Virus record (IMG/VR): IMGVR_UViG_3300042321_002788 | Span: 62,001 to 82,806 of that record | Reading direction: 5' to 3' (one strand) | Source: an uncultured virus (IMG/VR IMGVR_UViG_3300042321_002788) | Lineage: Duplodnaviria > Heunggongvirae > Uroviricota > Caudoviricetes | Length of the DNA stretch: 20,806 bases | Shown here: positions 3,310 to 19,539 of the stretch, piece by piece | How positions within the stretch are numbered: position 1 is the first letter of the stretch | Layout of the letters: every line of letters starts with the position of its first letter | The notes under the pieces: generated by a model | What the model was told of the DNA's origin: nothing | Databases searched by the model: none | Seen by the model: the letters and a program-made list of their open reading frames with translations, nothing else | Program-made: the position numbers and the translations under genes

Positions 3310-3344
3310 GGCTTTTTAAAAGATAGTATTTTCTCTATTTTAAG

Positions 3345-3426
3345 TGGATTGGGCTAGATTTGCACTAGCGTGGAATTACTCTACAGATTTACAGTCTGTC
3401 GCCTTCGACTACTCGGCCACCAATCC
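3345..3426 (-). tRNA. trnY: tRNA-Tyr (anticodon GUA), atypical D/T loops, CCA not encoded
   Basis: Minus strand: GGATTGG acceptor pairs CCAATCC, discriminator A; anticodon arm ACAGA-CTGTAAA-TCTGT; long variable region; T arm GCTAG-TGCAAAT-CTAGC. Confidence 0.9.
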
Positions 3427-3438
3427 TTGTTTAAATTT

Positions 3439-3467
3439 ATCTTACTATAATTCTTAATGCTTGTCAA
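3439..3467 (-). promoter_or_regulatory. Sigma70-type promoter for tRNA-Tyr
   Basis: TTGACA-N17-TAAGAT ending 13 nt upstream of the tRNA 5' end. Confidence 0.75.
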
Positions 3468-4011
3468 TCATATTGGTTTTTGATTCTTGATTCTTTTGAG
3501 ATTCTTGCAAATTAAGAAGTTGAAGCATTGCTTCTCCTGCGTCTTTACGCGCCATGTTACAAGTCCAGAGTCTTTGTTCATTGCGCTTGATAATGATAAT
3601 TTCTGTATTAGAAACTAAACAAACTAAATCATTTTTCTGTTTTATTAGTTGATTAATAGCTTCTAATTTTTGCTTTTGTTCTAATTCAGAAACGGGTTGA
3701 GGGTTTTCTCCATACTCTTGCGTGGAGAAAACAACAGCTAACATAACACTTTTTGTTTCTTTAAACTGAAAATGAATAATCTGCCAACTAAATTCACCAT
3801 CAGGCTCTAATTCTCGATTCCAAATATTTAGAAAGGTTTCTAAATAACCTTCTAATCCTTTTTGAGTTTGACGATTTTTATTAATATCACTGAAAAGTCC
3901 TTGATGCTGTTGAGGATAGTTTTCAACAGGTTTTACTGACTCACTATCTTGAATAGAGTAAGAATGACAAGAATTAAACGGAAACATAAAGGGCATATTG
4001 ATTGCTATCAA
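3454..4011 (-). CDS. Hypothetical protein resembling the C-terminal domain of N-6 DNA methylase/RM proteins
   Basis: C-terminal IIIIKRNEQRLWTxxMARKDAGE resembles the IIKPNxxRYWTxSxAxxDAD end of such proteins (from memory); no methylase motifs in the ORF. Confidence 0.45.
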   Translation of the reverse strand: MIAINMPFMFPFNSCHSYSIQDSESVKPVENYPQQHQGLFSDINKNRQTQKGLEGYLETFLNIWNRELEPDGEFSWQIIHFQFKETKSVMLAVVFSTQEYGENPQPVSELEQKQKLEAINQLIKQKNDLVCLVSNTEIIIIKRNEQRLWTCNMARKDAGEAMLQLLNLQESQKNQESKTNMIDKH

Positions 4012-6607: not shown

Positions 6608-6880
6608 CCATCTTCCTTTAGCCTTTGATATAAAAGGGTTTCGGGTAAGGATTGCGCCCCATTCGCTAAAATTCAGTTTTCAAGGTTCTGCTCATTCCAA
6701 AAAATCAGGCTAGTAAATCCCAGATTGTAAGCTGGTCGGGGTTTTCGGGGATTGCGCCCCGTGATTTTTTAGAATTTCGCTTAGATGCCTTATTGGGTAA
6801 GGCTTCCAGGTTATTTATGCCGTGGCTATCCTCGCACGGCTGAGGTGGGGCGGAAGAAAAAATAAGGGATTGCGAGTCAT
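6608..6880 (-). promoter_or_regulatory. CRISPR leader, partly overlapping the 3' end of the nuclease gene
   Basis: GGGGCGCAATCC twice (6649-6660, 6749-6760) and CGCAATCCC at ~6866-6874; also GAAACCCTT and AACCTTGAAAAC, which resemble cyanobacterial leader motifs. Confidence 0.65.
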
Positions 6881-8606
6881 TCTCGGACTGAGTGGGAGTG
6901 CGATTCCCTTCCTGCTTTATCTGCTTACTAATCGAGTGTTCGGCATTCTCTATTGGCGCGTCCCCAATAGACTCTTGATTTGCATCAAGATCAGGCGTGA
7001 ATTTCCCTGCTAAACCAGGGTATTTTCCAATCATAGAGACAGGAAACTTGATTAAAGAGCTAATCGCTCTTAAAAACTCATCTCGTAAGCCACGGATCAG
7101 AATATTTGCGGCGGCATTCTGATCGGCGTGGGCTTCATAGCCACAGCTAACACATCTAAACTTTGATTGACTAACGCGGTTAGCTTTATCAATATTACCA
7201 CAATTGAAGCAAGTTTGTGAAGTATGTTTAGGATTAACTCGGATCACTTTTCTGCCACGTTCGTTAGCTTTATTTTCGATAAATGTACGAAGTTGTCCAA
7301 TAGCATTATCAAGTAATGCCTTATTTAATCCGGACTTTCTTTTTTTGCCATTTTGTTTATAGCCATCACCGTCTTCTCTTTCTTTAGGTTTTGCGGCGGC
7401 TGTCATGTTTTTTAGTTTTAAATCTTCTAAAATAACTGATTGATATTCGCTGGTTATTTTATGGGCTAATTGAGCATTTCTCCCTTTTCGCTGACGAGCA
7501 ATTTTCTCATGAACACGGGCAAGTTTAGCGTAGGTTTTACGCTGATTATTAGAGTTATCTTTTTGCCTAGAAGCTTGACGCTGTAGTCGGTTAAGTCGCT
7601 TTTTCTGAATTTTTGCGTAGCGTTTAGCTTCTGATTGTCTCCCTAAGTCATCGGTAAATATTGCCACAGCACCCATATCTAAACCAACACATTTATCAGA
7701 TTCTTTATAGATCATGTCGTCGGTTTCAACGGTTAACTGTAGATAATATCCCGTCGCTTTACGAGTAATTTTAGCCATTCGGGGAGCTTTCCCTTGTAGT
7801 CGGTCAATCCCCCGTACTTTCAGTAATCCTATCTTTGAAGAAACAATAACCCCATTAGATTCAATCTTTATAGTTTCAGGTTGACCGTTAACAAGAGTCT
7901 CTACCTTATCCCGTCTTCTTTTAAACTTAGGAATCCCACGGATACCTTTTTTAGCGGCATCATAAGCAGGTTTAATCACACTTCTAAAAAAGCCTTTTTT
8001 AAACTCTGTTTCAATTTCACCGATAAATTTTGCTGTATCTTCTCGAAAGTAAAAAGCAAGTTTCTCCCTATTGAGATAATTAATAGCATCCTTGTCAATA
8101 TTTTCGGCATTCTTGAAACGACGGATAGGAATAGCATATAAGGGAGTATATTCTTTTCTGTTGCTTGTCTTTTTAAAATAGGCAATTTTACAGCAAGGAT
8201 TGCCAATTAAAAGTTCTTTTTCTTTATCTTTAAGGGCTTTAAACTCTTTTTCGTCATAATCCCCAGAATAACTTAACTCCCATATTTCAGGGCTAAACTC
8301 ATCAAATTTATGTTTTTTGCGATAATATCTTTGCTTTGATTCTTCCTTAAGTGCGATCGAAAGATTCCAGAGTAACTTACACGCCGCTAAAGAACGATCA
8401 ATCTCTGTGATTTGTTCTTTAGTAGGATGTATCTTAAATTCCAAGACTTCCATAGAAGATTTTTCTTCTTTTTTCTTAGGAGTCTTTTTTACGATACTAA
8501 ACCCTAGATGCCCATCTTTAGAACTAGGCGTTTTTTGAATTTGATACTCATCTACTTTACGCTTAACTTTACTTTCTTTGGCTTTCATAGATCGACCTTC
8601 TTTCAT
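6705..8606 (-). CDS. TnpB/Cas12-like RNA-guided RuvC nuclease, CRISPR-associated (type V-U-like; C2c8/V-U2 is a candidate assignment)
   Basis: TnpB-type N-terminus FKIHPTKEQ...CKLLWN; RuvC-I GLD310MG, RuvC-II ILE394DL, Zn ribbon CFNC...CVSC, RuvC-III AD495QNAAANI; stop 97 nt from the first repeat; likely start ATG 8588 (GAAGG RBS). Confidence 0.9.
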   Translation of the reverse strand: MKEGRSMKAKESKVKRKVDEYQIQKTPSSKDGHLGFSIVKKTPKKKEEKSSMEVLEFKIHPTKEQITEIDRSLAACKLLWNLSIALKEESKQRYYRKKHKFDEFSPEIWELSYSGDYDEKEFKALKDKEKELLIGNPCCKIAYFKKTSNRKEYTPLYAIPIRRFKNAENIDKDAINYLNREKLAFYFREDTAKFIGEIETEFKKGFFRSVIKPAYDAAKKGIRGIPKFKRRRDKVETLVNGQPETIKIESNGVIVSSKIGLLKVRGIDRLQGKAPRMAKITRKATGYYLQLTVETDDMIYKESDKCVGLDMGAVAIFTDDLGRQSEAKRYAKIQKKRLNRLQRQASRQKDNSNNQRKTYAKLARVHEKIARQRKGRNAQLAHKITSEYQSVILEDLKLKNMTAAAKPKEREDGDGYKQNGKKRKSGLNKALLDNAIGQLRTFIENKANERGRKVIRVNPKHTSQTCFNCGNIDKANRVSQSKFRCVSCGYEAHADQNAAANILIRGLRDEFLRAISSLIKFPVSMIGKYPGLAGKFTPDLDANQESIGDAPIENAEHSISKQIKQEGNRTPTQSENDSQSLIFSSAPPQPCEDSHGINNLEALPNKASKRNSKKSRGAIPENPDQLTIWDLLA

Positions 8607-10095: not shown

Positions 10096-11103
10096 ATGCC
10101 TATAAAATCTTTGACAACAAGACAAGCCCGGTTCCTTAGACTGGGTATAATTCGCAAAGGGGGAGAAAAAAAAGAAAACCCTAAAAGACCTGGCACTCTA
10201 ATAAGCGGAGATGATTTAGAATATTTTCGCATTGATTCTGATATTCAAGGAATCAACGAAAAATTTACCGCTATTTACGGGAAAGAACCAAAGCAATTAG
10301 ATTGCTTGTTACCTTTTCCTTATACAGACCAAGTATTTCCTTGTTGGATGGAACAGTGGAATGATAAAGATTTAAAAACCTCTGGGTTAATGATTCGGTG
10401 CGACGAGGAAAAGCAACATATCTACCAACAAGCTGGCAAAATGATTGCCACTAATCCTATCCCGTGCAAACGACAACAAAATCCTGACGGAAGTTATTCA
10501 GGGTGTAAATGCAAGCAAGTTGGGCGATTGCAGATTGTTTTACCTAAATTAGGTGAACTAGGATACTTTGAAGTCGAAACCCATTCAAAGTGGGATATTA
10601 TCGGACTAACAGAGCAACTACTAGCTATTGAAACATCGGCTGGTAGTTTGATTGGTATCCCTTTTCTATTAGAACGCGGGTCAAGAGAGCTATCTTATCC
10701 CTTACCAGACGGAAAAAGGGGACGAAAGACTTTTAGTCTTTTATCAATCCGTGTTCACCCTAGCAGAGCGTCTCAAGTTCTAGAAGTCATTGAAACAAAA
10801 GCCTTTCAACAATTTACGGGAAATGTAGAACCTGTCAGAACTCTAACTCCTGCGTCAACGGGAAACGTAAAATTGTTCAACGCTTCGCAATCACTGTCAG
10901 AGGATCGCAAGCAGGCTGGAATTACTTGGGCTGTAAATCAAGGATTACCTCAACCAGAAGCTTTGCAAATCGCCCAACAAGCAACCTCCGAAAAAGAATT
11001 GGCCGACCTCCTAAAAAAAGCTATAGACGCAAGGCTAAAGCCAGTAATAGAAGTTTGCAGTGAAAATATTGATCCTGGTGAACTTCTTAGTGAAGATTTT
11101 TAA
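10096..11103 (+). CDS. Gp3-like (phiC31/phiBT1-type) recombination directionality factor-like protein
   Basis: MPIKxLT...RLGxIRKG...DLEYFR, RCD, C..C.C..VGRL pattern and G-x-FEVETHS, consistent with the Gp3-like family. Confidence 0.7.
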   Translation: MPIKSLTTRQARFLRLGIIRKGGEKKENPKRPGTLISGDDLEYFRIDSDIQGINEKFTAIYGKEPKQLDCLLPFPYTDQVFPCWMEQWNDKDLKTSGLMIRCDEEKQHIYQQAGKMIATNPIPCKRQQNPDGSYSGCKCKQVGRLQIVLPKLGELGYFEVETHSKWDIIGLTEQLLAIETSAGSLIGIPFLLERGSRELSYPLPDGKRGRKTFSLLSIRVHPSRASQVLEVIETKAFQQFTGNVEPVRTLTPASTGNVKLFNASQSLSEDRKQAGITWAVNQGLPQPEALQIAQQATSEKELADLLKKAIDARLKPVIEVCSENIDPGELLSEDF

Positions 11104-13277: not shown

Positions 13278-14339
13278 ATGAGTGCAAAATCAAGAGACAA
13301 AATCAGAACTTATGGGTCTGCAAGAGGAGAGTTAATCGTAGTCGATCCCCAGCTAATTTCTTTCAGATTAGCTAACGGTGACTTTATCGGGCCAAGAATA
13401 GGGCTTCATGACGACGGCAAAATGCACGTCTTGCCTGATGAAACTCTTTTAACCTTTAGCCTCGATTTAATCGAGGCTATCGCAGGGGAAAGCGGATGGA
13501 ATACCCGCGTTACCTACGACTTGGAGTTGATTAAAGAACTAGCCGATAAGATACTGGCATCGGGCGTAATCTATCAACCTTTACACTTGATTGCAGACGG
13601 TGATCGACTGTTTCCTATGGACGGGCATCGAAGGGTATTAGCTTGGTTGCTTTTAGCCTCTCAAGGAATAATAATTCCTAACGTTCTAGCAATTATTAAG
13701 CCTTTGTCAGGCGGGCTAACCGTCCGGGACTTAGAGTATCAAATGCTCTCTTACGGCACTGATAGCGAAAAACTATCGGTGTACGACAAAGCGAAACTGA
13801 TCAGACGGCATTTACACGAGGATAGATTAGCTGGTTTAACTGAAGAACAGTCCTACCAACAGTTTTGCGAAAAAACTGGATGGAAAAAATCAGAATATGA
13901 TCGGACTCTAGAAATTTCTTCGATGTCTAGTCCGACATTAAAAGCAATCAAAGGTAAAGTATCAGAGACGACTTTACACAATCTTGTAAGGAAAAATGAA
14001 CTAACACTCTCGGAGAAAGAAAATGTTCTTTTAGAGACTGTAGCTATAGCGGAAGAAAAAGGGATAAAAGCCACTGGAGAATTAGTTCAATCTGTAGCAG
14101 CTAACCTTATAGAGTCTAAAAATCCAACTTTTTTGAACTCTGATGGAAACGTAAAACCCAGTGACGAATTAGAGCCAAAACCCATTAAACTTACTCCGAA
14201 AGCTAAAGAAGTTAAATATCTATTAATATCTTTAGCAACCGAAGGAAATGCAAAGCAAACAGACGATGATACAATGACCGTAGATTTTCCTGTAACTCTT
14301 TGGGAAAAACTTATTGATTTTGTAGAGAGATTAAGTTAG
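13278..14339 (+). CDS. ParB/Srx N-terminal domain protein
   Basis: LADKILASGVIYQPL...MDGHRRVLA ParB signature followed by an HTH-like region. Confidence 0.8.
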   Translation: MSAKSRDKIRTYGSARGELIVVDPQLISFRLANGDFIGPRIGLHDDGKMHVLPDETLLTFSLDLIEAIAGESGWNTRVTYDLELIKELADKILASGVIYQPLHLIADGDRLFPMDGHRRVLAWLLLASQGIIIPNVLAIIKPLSGGLTVRDLEYQMLSYGTDSEKLSVYDKAKLIRRHLHEDRLAGLTEEQSYQQFCEKTGWKKSEYDRTLEISSMSSPTLKAIKGKVSETTLHNLVRKNELTLSEKENVLLETVAIAEEKGIKATGELVQSVAANLIESKNPTFLNSDGNVKPSDELEPKPIKLTPKAKEVKYLLISLATEGNAKQTDDDTMTVDFPVTLWEKLIDFVERLS

Positions 14340-16171: not shown

Positions 16172-19069
16172 ATGATACCACAAAGCTCTAACCGTGTCAA
16201 GATCGATAAAAACAATCCTTGTCCCCACTGTGGCAAGCCTGATTGGTGCTATATGTACACTGCTGAGGACGGCAATTTACTCTCGGTCTGCAACCGAGAT
16301 CACGAACCCGCAGCAGGATGGGAAAAATCTTCTAAATTAGACAGTCAGGGCAAGCCAATCTACTATTTTAAGAAAGAAGTCAAGTTTTCTGGCTATAAAA
16401 AAGAAAAAACCCAATATTTTCTTTATCCTCCCCTTGTCAGTGGGGCGAGAATCCGCGTGTACCGGAAGGACTATCAAGAAGATGGAATCTGGAAAAAGGA
16501 TATTAAGCAGCAACATTCTACAGATAATGGTAAAAATTGGAAATGGGGAGTAGGCGATATCGGTTACAAAGATATACCTCTTTACCGTCAAGATCGGCTG
16601 GAAAAGGCTATTAAGGAAGGGACCCAGATATTTGTAGTAGAAGGCGAGACTAAGGTAGAAAGGCTTGAGTCGTTTGGGCTGGTTGCCACTTGCAATATAG
16701 GCGGATCAAAAAAATGGCAGCCAGATCACACGAAAGCTTTGAAGGGAGCAAATCTGATTTTATGCCCTGATCGCGACAAAGGGGGAATGGCTCACTGCCA
16801 GAAAATTTATCAAGATTTCCCCGATGCAAAATGGCTTTATGCCTATCCAGATTCTCCTTTGTGGAATCATTTACCAGATTCTCAAGGGGTAGATATTCTT
16901 AATTGGATTGAAGAAAAGAAGGTAACTCTCGATACATTGCTAACTTCGATAGTTGATAAACCAAAAGAAATAAAAGAGAGCAAAGAAAAAGAAGTCACAG
17001 TAACAGAAACGATGACTTTTCAAGACCTAATAACAGCTATTGACGGCTGTATTGGTCAGGAAGAAATCACCCGAACTCAGTGGCAAGAAAAAGTCGATCT
17101 GTGGGCAAAAGCCACTGGTAGGAAACCATCAGACATACGACATTTAATTGAAATCCGTAAAACAGAAATAGCAGAAGGGGACGCTATCAAATCAGGATTA
17201 GAAGGGTTCTTGAAAGGTAAGCATTATCAGCAGAAAGAGATTGATCTTTTTGAGATACTTCCGAAACCTTTAGCCGAAGCGATTATAAGCCGTGCCAAGA
17301 CATTAAATCAACCCCCAATCAGATTACTGCATTCTTTATGGCCAATACTAGGAGCTATTTTAGGAAGTCGGTTTGCAATTAACCTCCGAACTACTGTAAG
17401 AGAAAGGGAATGCTGGAAGGAATACCCGATATTCTATTGTGCAGATTTGGGCGGGGTTTCCACTGGTAAAACTCTCACTCAAAACGAAGTTTGTCGGGTT
17501 TTGAAAAGAAAAGATTTAGCCGAGCAGAAAAGAGTTACTAAGGAACAATCCACACTAGACGATCTAAAAGCTGCGTGGCAAGAGATGTCAGCGTCAGATC
17601 GCAAGGCAAACAAAACAAACGCTGAAATCAACCCTCGTCTTTATGAGAAAGAACACTGTCAGGCGCGTCGGTGGTTTTATGATGAAGGTACTCTTGATGG
17701 CATCTTAAAAACGATGTCCTCGCAACCTTCTTGGCAAGGTGGGGTAGTCGTATATGACGAATTATCGGGATTTTTTGAAGGATTAAATCAGTACCGATCA
17801 GGTGGTAAAGGTAACGACCGGCAACGAGACTTAAGCAACTGGAATGGCCCTATCCGAAATACTTTTGACCGCGTAAACAAAGACAATCGATACTATTTAG
17901 ATGGGCAAACACTTAATAAATTAGGTGGGATACAAGTCGAGAAACTCAGGAAATATCTTGATTTATCTAATGATGTCGATGGGGCAGTTTCTCGGTATCT
18001 TTTCTTGCTACACGAACCCCTTGATCCTCGTCCTGGTAAGCCGCCAGAAGACCCTAATTCTATCGATGAGTGTATCGAAACACTGGTCAATCAAATCAGT
18101 GGAATTAGCCTAGAAGCTGATGAAAATGGGATTATCGATCCTTATAATTGCTGGTTTAGCGAAATCGGAGAAAGTTATGCCTGGGGTATTAAGTATCACT
18201 ACGAGATACTTATTAAGAAGTATCGAGCGATTAATCCATCATTTGCTTCCTATCTAGGGAAGCAAATGAAGACTTTTTTAAGGCTTACATTAAGTATCCA
18301 TCTTCTCAATTGGATATTTGATCCAGATAATACTAATCTTTACAGTATTCCTGTGCAAACAGCCATTAAAGCTGCTAAGATGACCGACTTCTATATCAGT
18401 CAATTCCTGACAATTCAAGGAGTTACGTCTCAGGACGAAAATCCAGTACAGGGAATTTTATCCGAAATCTGGGAGATCGTTAAAAGCGCAGGTCAAATTA
18501 AACCTCGGGACGTTGCCCAAAAATTCGGCGGGCGTAAAATTAATGGGGAAAAAGTAAATACATCTATCGCCCGTACCCTACTTACTCAGCTAGAGCAAGC
18601 TGGCTATGGACGACTAGAGGTCAAATCAAGGGGTATGGTGTTGCACTATCAAGAGCCAAAAGAATTAGAAACTTTTGAGATAGAAGATTCTCTGGAATAT
18701 AAATCGGAGATAAAAGAAGAAATTGTTCAAGTTGCCAGTCCCACTTTCACACACCCAAAAAATGAATCGATCCCTGATTCTGGCATAGTAGAAGTTGAAT
18801 CGGAGCCAGTAATCGATGAGTTATCGGCTGATGGTGTACACATTGATAGTCTTCCTGATCTTGAGAAAGAAAAGGTGCTAGTGCGGACGGCTGCACCTAT
18901 AGAGATAGGGGAGCGAATTATCCCACCGAGAGCAGTCGGAAAAGTTATAGAAGCAACTTTTGACACTTTTGACAATCAATGGCTTTTGAGGGTAGAAACT
19001 GTTTTAAATGGGTCTGTGATCATTTTTACAATTCCATTTTCTGATTGTTACCTAGATATAAGTACCTGA
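16172..19069 (+). CDS. Primase-helicase-like replication protein (Zn-binding + TOPRIM + DUF3987-like NTPase)
   Basis: CPHCGKPDWC...C; TOPRIM VVEGE...PDRD; Walker A-like GGVSTGKT, Walker B-like VVVYDE, GGIQ and RYLF. Confidence 0.85.
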   Translation: MIPQSSNRVKIDKNNPCPHCGKPDWCYMYTAEDGNLLSVCNRDHEPAAGWEKSSKLDSQGKPIYYFKKEVKFSGYKKEKTQYFLYPPLVSGARIRVYRKDYQEDGIWKKDIKQQHSTDNGKNWKWGVGDIGYKDIPLYRQDRLEKAIKEGTQIFVVEGETKVERLESFGLVATCNIGGSKKWQPDHTKALKGANLILCPDRDKGGMAHCQKIYQDFPDAKWLYAYPDSPLWNHLPDSQGVDILNWIEEKKVTLDTLLTSIVDKPKEIKESKEKEVTVTETMTFQDLITAIDGCIGQEEITRTQWQEKVDLWAKATGRKPSDIRHLIEIRKTEIAEGDAIKSGLEGFLKGKHYQQKEIDLFEILPKPLAEAIISRAKTLNQPPIRLLHSLWPILGAILGSRFAINLRTTVRERECWKEYPIFYCADLGGVSTGKTLTQNEVCRVLKRKDLAEQKRVTKEQSTLDDLKAAWQEMSASDRKANKTNAEINPRLYEKEHCQARRWFYDEGTLDGILKTMSSQPSWQGGVVVYDELSGFFEGLNQYRSGGKGNDRQRDLSNWNGPIRNTFDRVNKDNRYYLDGQTLNKLGGIQVEKLRKYLDLSNDVDGAVSRYLFLLHEPLDPRPGKPPEDPNSIDECIETLVNQISGISLEADENGIIDPYNCWFSEIGESYAWGIKYHYEILIKKYRAINPSFASYLGKQMKTFLRLTLSIHLLNWIFDPDNTNLYSIPVQTAIKAAKMTDFYISQFLTIQGVTSQDENPVQGILSEIWEIVKSAGQIKPRDVAQKFGGRKINGEKVNTSIARTLLTQLEQAGYGRLEVKSRGMVLHYQEPKELETFEIEDSLEYKSEIKEEIVQVASPTFTHPKNESIPDSGIVEVESEPVIDELSADGVHIDSLPDLEKEKVLVRTAAPIEIGERIIPPRAVGKVIEATFDTFDNQWLLRVETVLNGSVIIFTIPFSDCYLDIST

Positions 19070-19074
19070 TAGAA

Positions 19075-19103
19075 TTGACAATTTTAGGAGTCCCTGATAG
19101 GAT
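19075..19103 (+). promoter_or_regulatory. Sigma70-type promoter of the tRNA-like RNA
   Basis: TTGACA-N17-TAGGAT with extended TGn; predicted start at ~19109-19110. Confidence 0.75.
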
Positions 19104-19109
19104 TGAAGT

Positions 19110-19307
19110 GCTAGAGTAGCTTGGTAGCTAAAGGCTGAAACGAAGCCTTCAACCGAAAAGGGACTTAATGCAAAAAATAAAGTTATTTTTTGTTTCAAAA
19201 CTGAAATTTGCGAATCCACCGAACTTAGCAAAGATTGAGTGAGGGAAGGGCGTTTCGTCAGGAGTAGATTTAATTAAGTTTTGCGGGTTCAATTCCCGTC
19301 TCTAGTA
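19110..19307 (+). ncRNA. tRNA-like structured RNA (~198 nt): acceptor stem plus T arm with a large insert
   Basis: GCTAGAG(19110-19116) pairs CTCTAGT(19300-19306); T arm GCGGG-TTCAATT-CCCGT(19283-19299); several internal helices; no canonical anticodon arm. Confidence 0.7.
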
Positions 19308-19310
19308 CCT

Positions 19311-19514
19311 ATGATCGGACAATATATTCCCTCCCGATACCCTGAAAAAGTTTATCGTGTTAATTCCTATGGTCAAATTTTCCCCCGGTGCAAACCACTG
19401 GGGATTATTAAGACTGCCATAGGAATCTACTATCACTTTGAATCAATTGATCGCCTCACAAAAGGAGAACATTTTTACTGTTTTCGCAAAGAAGATTTTA
19501 CAGAAATTTCTTGA
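19311..19514 (+). CDS. Hypothetical protein (67 aa)
   Basis: ATG 19311 just after the RNA 3' end; the ORF-track TTG start at 19281 falls inside the RNA. Confidence 0.55.
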   Translation: MIGQYIPSRYPEKVYRVNSYGQIFPRCKPLGIIKTAIGIYYHFESIDRLTKGEHFYCFRKEDFTEIS

Positions 19515-19539
19515 CAATTCTAGTAAAATGATGTAGGAT
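19511..19539 (+). promoter_or_regulatory. Sigma70-type promoter
   Basis: TTGACA-N17-TAGGAT; shares TTGACAATTCTAG with the 9736 promoter. Confidence 0.7.

Follow-up and report, generated by a model that had tools for sequence, protein, structure and literature searches.

The stretch of DNA analysed here, called the window throughout, is 20,806 nucleotides (nt) long and forms the last 20.8 kb of the 82.8-kb IMG/VR virus record IMGVR_UViG_3300042321_002788. On its plus strand, at 19110-19309, we found a conserved phage gene for an RNA that has the outline of a transfer RNA (tRNA), a promoter of its own and a 133-nt inserted domain. It is not a decoding tRNA, not an intron-containing tRNA and, by the usual tests, not a transfer-messenger RNA (tmRNA). 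The gene occurs in two diverged sequence types, A (that of the window) and B, among phages of Microcystis. The interpretation we put forward, and to which we give an even chance, is that it is transcribed independently into a stable non-coding RNA, about 197 nt long before CCA is added, a tRNA-shaped, non-decoding mimic that would act on a host factor.

The predicted transcript starts at G19110, and its tRNA-like body ends at the discriminator A19307 (all parts of the RNA lie on the plus strand). The two ends are joined in a 7-bp acceptor stem, GCTAGAG (19110-19116) with CTCTAGT (19300-19306), after which come the discriminator A (19307) and CC (19308-19309), and the 3' strand is preceded by a T arm, GCGGG-TTCAATT-CCCGT (19283-19299), which was placed by alignment to the Rfam tRNA model and is essentially invariant among the copies. 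The 5' acceptor strand leads into a mini D-like hairpin, TAGCT-TGGT-AGCTA (19117-19130), of 5 bp (19117-19121/19126-19130) with a 4-nt loop that keeps the GG, and then into a 6-bp anticodon-like hairpin, AAGGCT/AGCCTT (19131-19136/19144-19149). An earlier interpretation made from the letters alone (the sequence-only reading) had proposed the acceptor stem, the T arm and the mini D-like hairpin, as well as the hairpin at 19170-19193 and the long-range helix described below, and all of them lie where it had placed them. It had also drawn the anticodon-like hairpin, which is present as described except that its loop has 7 nt (GAAACGA, 19137-19143) rather than 6.

Between the 5' acceptor strand and the T arm we measured 166 nt, close to the earlier estimate of about 165. 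This interval continues past the anticodon-like hairpin with a single-stranded linker, CAACCGAAAA (19150-19159), which is the same in types A and B and shows single changes in 3 of 33 aligned rows. A long-range helix, P2, then closes the insert beside the T arm, its 5' strand GGGACTTAAT (19160-19169) pairing with 19273-19282; the core pairs are 19162-19169/19273-19280, and G-U pairs extend the helix to its full length. P2 encloses an interior of 103 nt, and the whole inserted domain measures 133 nt. The interior holds a variable hairpin (19170-19193) with the loop AAGT, CCTT or ACTT, a proposed helix P2b between AAATTTGC (19204-19211) and GTAGATTT (19264-19271), the hairpin ACTTAG-CAAAGA-TTGAGT (19223-19240), which lies inside a short internal reading frame, and the hexamer CGTTTC (19251-19256), which is complementary to the loop GAAACG (19137-19142) of the anticodon-like hairpin and is the partner strand of a candidate pseudoknot. 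The RNA folds with a minimum free energy of -55.5 kcal/mol, compared with -43.5 +/- 3.7 kcal/mol for shuffled sequences (z = -3.2), and none of 200 shuffles was as stable. After A19307 the dinucleotide varies among copies (CC, CT, TC or TT); since these two bases are not conserved, CCA is not encoded and would probably be added post-transcriptionally.

The element is present in 52 IMG/VR phage contigs, nine GenBank records of the Ma-LMM01 group and two other contigs. True copies make up 52 of the 56 loci returned by our pattern scan and were confirmed with an nhmmer profile; 46 belong to type A, three of them cut by contig ends, and 6 to type B. When compared with GenBank phages by blastn, the window gave nine matching records (Fukuivirus), all of them Ma-LMM01-group Microcystis myoviruses, with the match confined to window positions 19058-19365 at about 91% identity. 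In Ma-LMM01 this match corresponds to an unannotated 326-bp gap between gp162 and a tRNA-Tyr gene, and the element is likewise without annotation in all three GenBank genome regions that we inspected (Ma-LMM01, MaMV-DC and MaMV-CH02). Identity to Ma-LMM01 is 95.0% over the 200-nt core; it drops to 83% in the promoter region and to 82% in the 56 nt that follow the core, and farther out to 34-40% (unrelated sequence).

Two further pattern scans gave 41 true loci and one chance locus (L063) for a gapped D-loop/T-loop pattern, and 45 true and 43 chance loci for a loop-plus-linker pattern. A metagenome scan with a type B 19-mer gave eight loci, of which one was true (type B). Among 185,579 representative genomes there were six matches; five are chance matches in GC-rich coding DNA, and the sixth lies on a 27-kb contig binned with a Crocinitomicaceae metagenome-assembled genome, a non-cyanobacterial bin, where it looks like a mis-binned phage. 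Homologues in cyanobacterial prophages, which the sequence-only reading had suggested collecting, were therefore not found among these six matches. Types A and B were the only ones seen, and no third sequence type appeared in the IMG/VR pattern, metagenome and representative-genome scans.

Both types carry a promoter directly ahead of the acceptor stem. In the window the promoter region spans 19066-19106 on the plus strand, with a -35 hexamer TTGACA (19075-19080), an extended -10 TG (19095-19096) and a -10 hexamer TAGGAT (19098-19103), so that the promoter TTGACA-17-TAGGAT proposed from the sequence was recovered in its place when we re-read 18900-19500; it scored 10 of 12 matches in our promoter scan. 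G1 of the acceptor stem (19110) lies 7 nt past the -10 hexamer. This distance is unchanged in Ma-LMM01, where the -10 is TAGAAT, and in type B, where the promoter is TTGACA-18-TATAAT; the type B spacer is unrelated to that of type A and the hexamers are conserved. The promoter has thus been retained in both diverged types. Genes of every class in Ma-LMM01 have SigA-type promoters according to the accessible portion of the infection study (PMC5780444), with which the promoter of the element is consistent. The type A promoter sits within an imperfect 28-nt direct duplication (CTGATAGAATTGA at 19066-19078 and CTGATAGGATTGA at 19094-19106). On the minus strand this duplication matches CRISPR-DR44 (RF01353) at 23.2 bits against a cut-off of 35, and the sequence is absent from type B; we rejected this candidate. 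A second TTGACA-17-TAGGAT promoter with identical hexamers lies at 19511-19539, 430 nt downstream and ahead of the next small open reading frame (ORF), so that the phage reuses one strong sigma-70-type promoter form.

The fold was examined in an alignment (A2) of 33 rows, 32 of them distinct, against a 63-pair structure derived from the window sequence. Types A and B are 68% identical and every helix is kept between them, with 97.9% of cells in the alignment able to pair. Twelve of the 63 pairs change on both sides, compared with 2.3 +/- 1.3 in shuffles (none of 500 reached 12) and with 2-4 when the partners are slid by 1-3 columns. As the sequence-only reading had asked of homologues, compensatory changes are found in the acceptor stem, the D-like hairpin, the anticodon-like hairpin, the long-range helix and the variable hairpin.

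In the acceptor stem (helix 1), which reads GCTAGAG/CTCTAGT in type A and GCTATTG/CAATAGC in type B, two of seven pairs change on both sides, G5-C becoming U-A and A6-U becoming U-A in type B. Within type A, A6-U67 is also replaced by G-C in L007, with G-U intermediates in four other rows, and G1-U72 by A-U; across the alignment G1-U72 is seen as A-U in 4 rows or G-C in 2. The D-like hairpin (helix 2) reads TAGCT/AGCTA in type A and TGGCT/AGCCA in type B, an A-U pair giving way to G-C, and the anticodon-like stem (helix 3) reads AAGGCT/AGCCTT and GAGGTTT/AAACCTC, with two pairs changed on both sides. The loop of the latter, GAAACG, is constant apart from G>A in three rows and a 2-nt insertion in L013 and L036. 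Three of the ten P2 pairs (helix 5) change on both sides and the six pairs nearest the junction are kept in type B; at the base of this long helix C-G becomes U-A and U-A becomes A-U between the types. The variable hairpin of Ma-LMM01 lacks one A and one T on opposite strands, and that of type B has an unrelated sequence that still folds as a hairpin.

Support is more limited elsewhere in the structure. The hairpin 19223-19240 (helix 8) has one pair changed on both sides and two on one side, the T arm (helix 9) has no informative variation, and in P2b (helix 7) six of eight pairs are constant and no double-sided change is seen, which leaves P2b unproven. For the pseudoknot (helix 4), which the sequence-only reading had raised as a possibility, the strands GAAACG and CGUUUC (19137-19142 with 19251-19256) are complementary and intact in both types. 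One compensatory event is seen, in L090, where A-U replaces G-C through a G>A change in the loop and a C>U change in its partner; L038 and L049 have the loop change alone. The four 'unpaired' cells in this helix arise from MAFFT placing the type B loop one column off.

Standard detection tools did not call the element. At gathering thresholds Rfam reported the tRNA-Tyr gene of the window only (as 3345-3426) and nothing at the element, and at E ≤ 10 the region 18950-19450 gave seven weak matches, none credible. No Rfam family thus reaches threshold, which supports the sequence-only reading in seeing here a phage RNA not described before, driven by a promoter and tRNA-like in its elbow and ends. 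ARAGORN left the element uncalled in its default tRNA and its tmRNA searches, the default run calling tRNA-Tyr only. Measured against the features of a tRNA, the element has the 7-bp acceptor stem, the 5-bp T stem and a T loop of the UUCRANY type, and departs from a tRNA in its D loop, TGGT, of 4 nt instead of 8-11, and in its anticodon-like loop, which has A at the position of U33. A decoding tRNA was rejected on the short D loop and missing U33 together with the 2-nt insertion that the loop tolerates in L013 and L036 and its probable pairing elsewhere.

We consider it very improbable that the element is instead a decayed or interrupted tRNA gene without function, whether an intron-containing tRNA, a pseudogene with an insertion or the remnant of an attachment site. 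The Rfam tRNA model (RF00005) does match the T arm and 3' acceptor strand weakly, at 15.8 bits against a gathering threshold of 29 and over the 3' part only, and ARAGORN, when introns are allowed, proposes a 'tRNA-Pro(agg)' that has a 3-bp D stem, a 24-nt variable arm and no U33 and is interrupted by a 105-nt intron. An intron-containing tRNA had also been the alternative offered by the sequence-only reading. This model, however, builds its anticodon stem from the two strands of the pseudoknot and is incompatible with the covarying hairpin 19131-19149. A further point for decay is a second, truncated copy in L007-type contigs (L007:85-190), 1.25 kb upstream of the full one; here the promoter and the first ~38 nt of the RNA give way to an unrelated stem-loop and T-run resembling a terminator. 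Against decay, all 200 nt including the insert are more conserved than the flanks, the helices covary, and two diverged types have kept the promoter. No intron or ribozyme family matched; the lack of a group I intron core noted earlier is borne out by the absence of any intron family in Rfam at E ≤ 10. Nor was there a cyanobacterial copy among the six representative-genome matches.

The element is found in several gene contexts. In the window it sits after a 965-amino-acid primase/helicase (DUF3987) gene (16172-19069), which is preceded on the same plus strand by a ParB-like gene (13278-14339) and a recombination-directionality-factor-like (Gp3-like) gene (10096-11103); with these neighbours, the RNA gene ends a replication module and is not among structural genes. 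The type B copy lies upstream of a nucleoside 2-deoxyribosyltransferase-like gene followed by a 677-amino-acid N6 DNA methylase with a specificity domain (L297:5649-8590, minus strand), and none of the window proteins has a match within 9 kb of it; around the L007-type copy only one phage protein matches. Similarity across contexts starts near 19058-19075 and, in the L006-, L007- and L016-type contexts, ends at 19310. From these unrelated contexts around a conserved unit, a cassette of about 250 bp comprising promoter and RNA appears to move between otherwise unrelated Microcystis phages, most simply by recombination.

A piece of coding sequence has travelled with the cassette in some phages. 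In the window an ORF of 67 codons (19311-19514, plus strand), which lies outside the RNA and has no family match in our Pfam and PHROGs scans, begins with an ATG at 19311, 4 nt past the discriminator. Its first 18 codons (19311-19365; L002:4256-4310) have been carried into Ma-LMM01-type phages along with the cassette. The changes in these codons are of the synonymous type and a stop follows codon 18 in Ma-LMM01, so that this piece is a gene fragment left by recombination. A side observation on mobile DNA in the window is a 633-amino-acid ORF at 6705-8606 (minus strand) with OrfB_IS605 and Cas12f1-like TNB domains, a TnpB-type transposon nuclease.

The position of the 67-codon ORF bears on an explanation that we hold to be unlikely, in which the tRNA-like ends are a scaffold for processing and stability and the insert is a regulatory RNA that base-pairs with a phage or host mRNA, or in which the element is a cis-acting leader whose cleavage after A19307 would set free a downstream message that keeps a very short leader. 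A tRNA scaffold around an RNA is known to stabilise it, and the invariant single-stranded blocks CAACCGAAAA and AAUUUGCGAAUCCACC resemble the seeds of such a regulator; in the window, too, the next ORF follows closely, with no terminator between. A complement to the three invariant blocks was, however, not found elsewhere in the 82.8-kb phage genome with 1 to 3 mismatches allowed depending on the block, and the D-loop GG and the T loop are conserved beyond the needs of a stem that protects the ends. As for a leader, the L006-, L007- and L016-type copies are followed by unrelated DNA with no ATG there, and the type B copy is followed by a separate promoter and ribosome-binding site.

Within the insert lies a short reading frame that invites comparison with tmRNA. 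The frame (19210-19242, plus strand) reads GCG AAT CCA CCG AAC TTA GCA AAG ATT GAG TGA, ten codons for ANPPNLAKIE and a stop, and lies shortly downstream of the variable hairpin and an unpaired stretch. The type B version has six codons, for ANPPNL, before a TAA stop, and beyond it the frame shifts. The 33 sequences differ at six sites of the frame: L006 has GCT for GCG; L036 and type B have CCA for CCG; type B has AAT for AAC; TTA is replaced by TTG in most of type A and by CTG in type B; and three rows have TAA for the TGA stop. Every one of these differences is silent here, compared with one of six in each of the other frames; of the single changes that could occur in this stretch only 21% would be silent, and of the transitions 36%. 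Of the 110 gap-free stretches of 18 nt in the alignment, no other combines four or more variable sites with an unchanged amino-acid sequence and the absence of a stop. No conserved start codon lies upstream of the frame in the alignment: the ATG that is in frame in the window falls out of frame in Ma-LMM01, where each strand of the upstream hairpin is shorter by one base, and type B has a further 2-nt indel upstream of the frame.

On this basis the element might be a miniature tmRNA-like RNA that is charged, enters stalled ribosomes, resumes at GCG AAU CCA CCG AAC UUA and adds an ANPPNL(AKIE) tag without a degradation signal; in this way the phage could free ribosomes or divert host rescue while the tagged proteins remain unmarked for proteolysis. 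We rate this as improbable. The topology is tmRNA-like, with an acceptor stem, a reduced D arm, a T arm and an insert closed by a covarying helix beside the T arm, and the frame lacks a start and opens with Ala-Asn on GCG, GCN being the usual resume codon of tmRNA. Its variable sites are silent throughout, and its 3' part lies in the hairpin 19223-19240, with the stop at the hairpin end in type A or in the loop in type B. Its length of ten codons equals the commonest tag length; as far as the accessible text of PMC11915505 goes, tmRNA tags most often have 10 residues, and forms with two codons or without a coding sequence are known, including that of phage DS6A.

Several findings stand against such a role. 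At 3:70, 30 of 32 distinct rows have U-A, the two exceptions being copies whose 3' strand is replaced, and neither 2:71 nor 4:69 has a G-U; the alanine identity that defines tmRNA is therefore missing, as the sequence-only reading had noted for G3-U70. The tmRNA model RF00023 gave no match at E ≤ 10 in the whole 82.8-kb record or in the region 18950-19450, and ARAGORN in tmRNA mode (-m) found nothing; the mitochondrial model RF02544 (mt-tmRNA) gave three weak matches elsewhere in the genome, all far below its cut-off. The element has an anticodon-like arm, which tmRNAs lack, and its tag would end in KIE or L and not in a hydrophobic Ala-Ala. In type B the frame stops after six codons and then shifts. 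The changes, all but one of them transitions, also fit the G-U-rich hairpin 19223-19240 with its one compensatory pair, and once the post-hoc choice of window and frame is allowed for, the pattern of silent sites has a p of about 0.003-0.07 by our own rough estimate. Moreover, the G>A change at the stop codon recurs in type B at the homologous site, which is not a stop (L153). SmpB was not found in any of the five phage records searched, which is neutral, as the host has SmpB. We likewise rate as improbable that the element represents a novel kind of phage trans-translation RNA, related to tmRNA but half its size and not charged with alanine, that delivers an ANPPNL... tag without a degradation signal. 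If it did, phages would recycle ribosomes or blunt host rescue or abortive-infection responses while the tagged proteins were spared, and, if the internal frame is read, this would be the first tmRNA-like system without alanine identity.

Returning to the non-decoding mimic, we can outline how it would work. The data show the conservation, promoter, fold and mobility of the gene and its lack of decoding features; its maturation, stability, mimicry and target are inferred. Host sigma-70 (SigA) RNA polymerase would start at or beside G19110, and with such a start the 5' end probably needs no cut by RNase P. The acceptor stem, T arm and GG-bearing mini D loop would form a tRNA-like elbow and end, on which host tRNA 3'-end enzymes (RNase Z or exonucleases, then the CCA-adding enzyme) may trim and cap the RNA past A19307. 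The tRNA-like half could then occupy a host tRNA-binding factor in translation, tRNA processing or tRNA-directed defence, and the 133-nt insert, with its invariant single strands, loop-to-insert pseudoknot and variable hairpin, would give the specific effect.

The surroundings of the gene offer a hint about the target. The tRNA-Tyr(GUA) gene of the window lies at 3344-3426 on the minus strand, 15.7 kb from the element, and in Ma-LMM01-group phages the corresponding tRNA-Tyr and an adjacent 185-amino-acid gene adjoin the RNA element (144825-145808 of NC_008562). A convergent tRNA-Tyr gene is found within 1.5 kb downstream in 17 of the 52 contigs, none of them of type B. Such frequent proximity may connect the element with the supply of tRNA or with host defences directed at tRNA, a theme proposed for phage tRNAs in general in the available part of PMC10264068. 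The tRNA-Tyr and the 185-amino-acid gene of the window (phrog_36071, no function assigned; 3337-4011, minus strand) are about 90% identical to their counterparts in the Ma-LMM01 group.

Public sequence data contain the element as well. We found 17-29% of sampled words in 24 public runs from 12 studies (16 of the runs recorded as RNA), uncovered stretches in these assembled runs being uninformative. All four freshwater or aquatic metatranscriptomes examined, each from a different study, contain the element, and in one it is represented solely by a 187-nt contig that does not extend beyond the RNA body (19119-19305); we take this as weak evidence.

Some of the evidence weighs against the mimic. 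The metatranscriptome runs consist of assembled contigs, which attest presence in RNA libraries and not transcription, ends, strand or level, and in two of the four runs the contigs, of 1.1 and 2.3 kb, extend beyond the RNA into flanking DNA of L016-type phages. Our scan showed no terminator 3' of the gene, so that the 3' end must come from processing. In five of the 52 contigs (L009, L011, L029, L031 and L048, the same contigs as L150, L152, L174, L177 and L200) the 3' acceptor strand with the discriminator (19300-19307), CTCTAGTACC, has given way to CTGGGGAC, and the remaining 190 nt are intact; this may mean that the tRNA-like end can be dispensed with, or that these copies are dead. With only two deep lineages, the compensatory changes represent few independent events. 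Finally, since the anticodon-like loop is probably held in the pseudoknot, a simple decoy for anticodon nucleases is not obviously favoured.

A description of this RNA was not found in the literature searched, the supplementary list of 10,006 candidate RNAs in PMC10690425 lying outside that search; Microcystis is not mentioned in PMC10690425. The Ma-LMM01 infection transcriptome (PMC5780444) deals with ORFs only, the words tRNA, intergenic and non-coding occurring nowhere in its accessible text, and the accessible text of PMC9927357 mentions tRNAscan and not the element.

Compared with known RNAs, the element shares with tmRNA (SsrA, RF00023, and the DS6A forms) the acceptor stem and T arm, the reduced D arm, an insert-closing helix that abuts the T arm and the existence of phage-encoded forms, and its candidate pseudoknot and putative short start-less frame beginning GCG-AAU recall those of tmRNA. 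It differs in having U3:A70 instead of G3:U70, an additional anticodon-like hairpin, a tag without an Ala-Ala end, a single candidate pseudoknot of another topology and about half the usual size. With class II tRNAs (Leu, Ser and bacterial Tyr) it has in common the acceptor, D, anticodon-like, extra and T arms and the discriminator A, and its extra domain leaves the body exactly at the position of the variable arm; that arm, however, measures 133 nt against 13-21, the D loop 4 nt against 8-11, U33 is missing and the loop is probably pseudoknotted.

Other phages make stable RNAs with tRNA-like ends. Species 1 (rnaC) and species 2 (rnaD) of T4 are stable RNAs of 120-140 nt with such ends, encoded beside phage tRNA genes and cut from the transcript of the tRNA cluster. 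In general description the element resembles them as a phage RNA with tRNA-like ends near a tRNA gene; unlike them it has its own promoter and a larger, more structured insert. YrlA, the bacterial Y-RNA-like RNA, is also non-decoding, has a T arm, a D arm and an acceptor-like stem, and includes phage members, but its ends form a Ro-binding stem with the tRNA-like part internal, and Rfam gave no YrlA match here at E ≤ 10. A Ro/Rsr gene was not noticed among the window ORFs scanned against Pfam and PHROGs. The complete cloverleaf outline, with a probably pseudoknotted domain of 133 nt where the variable arm would be, is a new architecture among such RNAs.

Non-decoding tRNA-shaped RNAs form a small but growing class that includes tmRNA, its tag-less phage forms, Y-RNA-like RNAs and the T4 stable RNAs. 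Toxic blooms in fresh water are caused by Microcystis, whose phages, the model Ma-LMM01 among them, are being studied as a natural means of control. According to the accessible portion of PMC5780444, this host's set of defence genes is the largest known. An RNA gene that is strongly conserved, has a promoter to itself and is passed between unrelated phages of this one host is likely to matter for infection.

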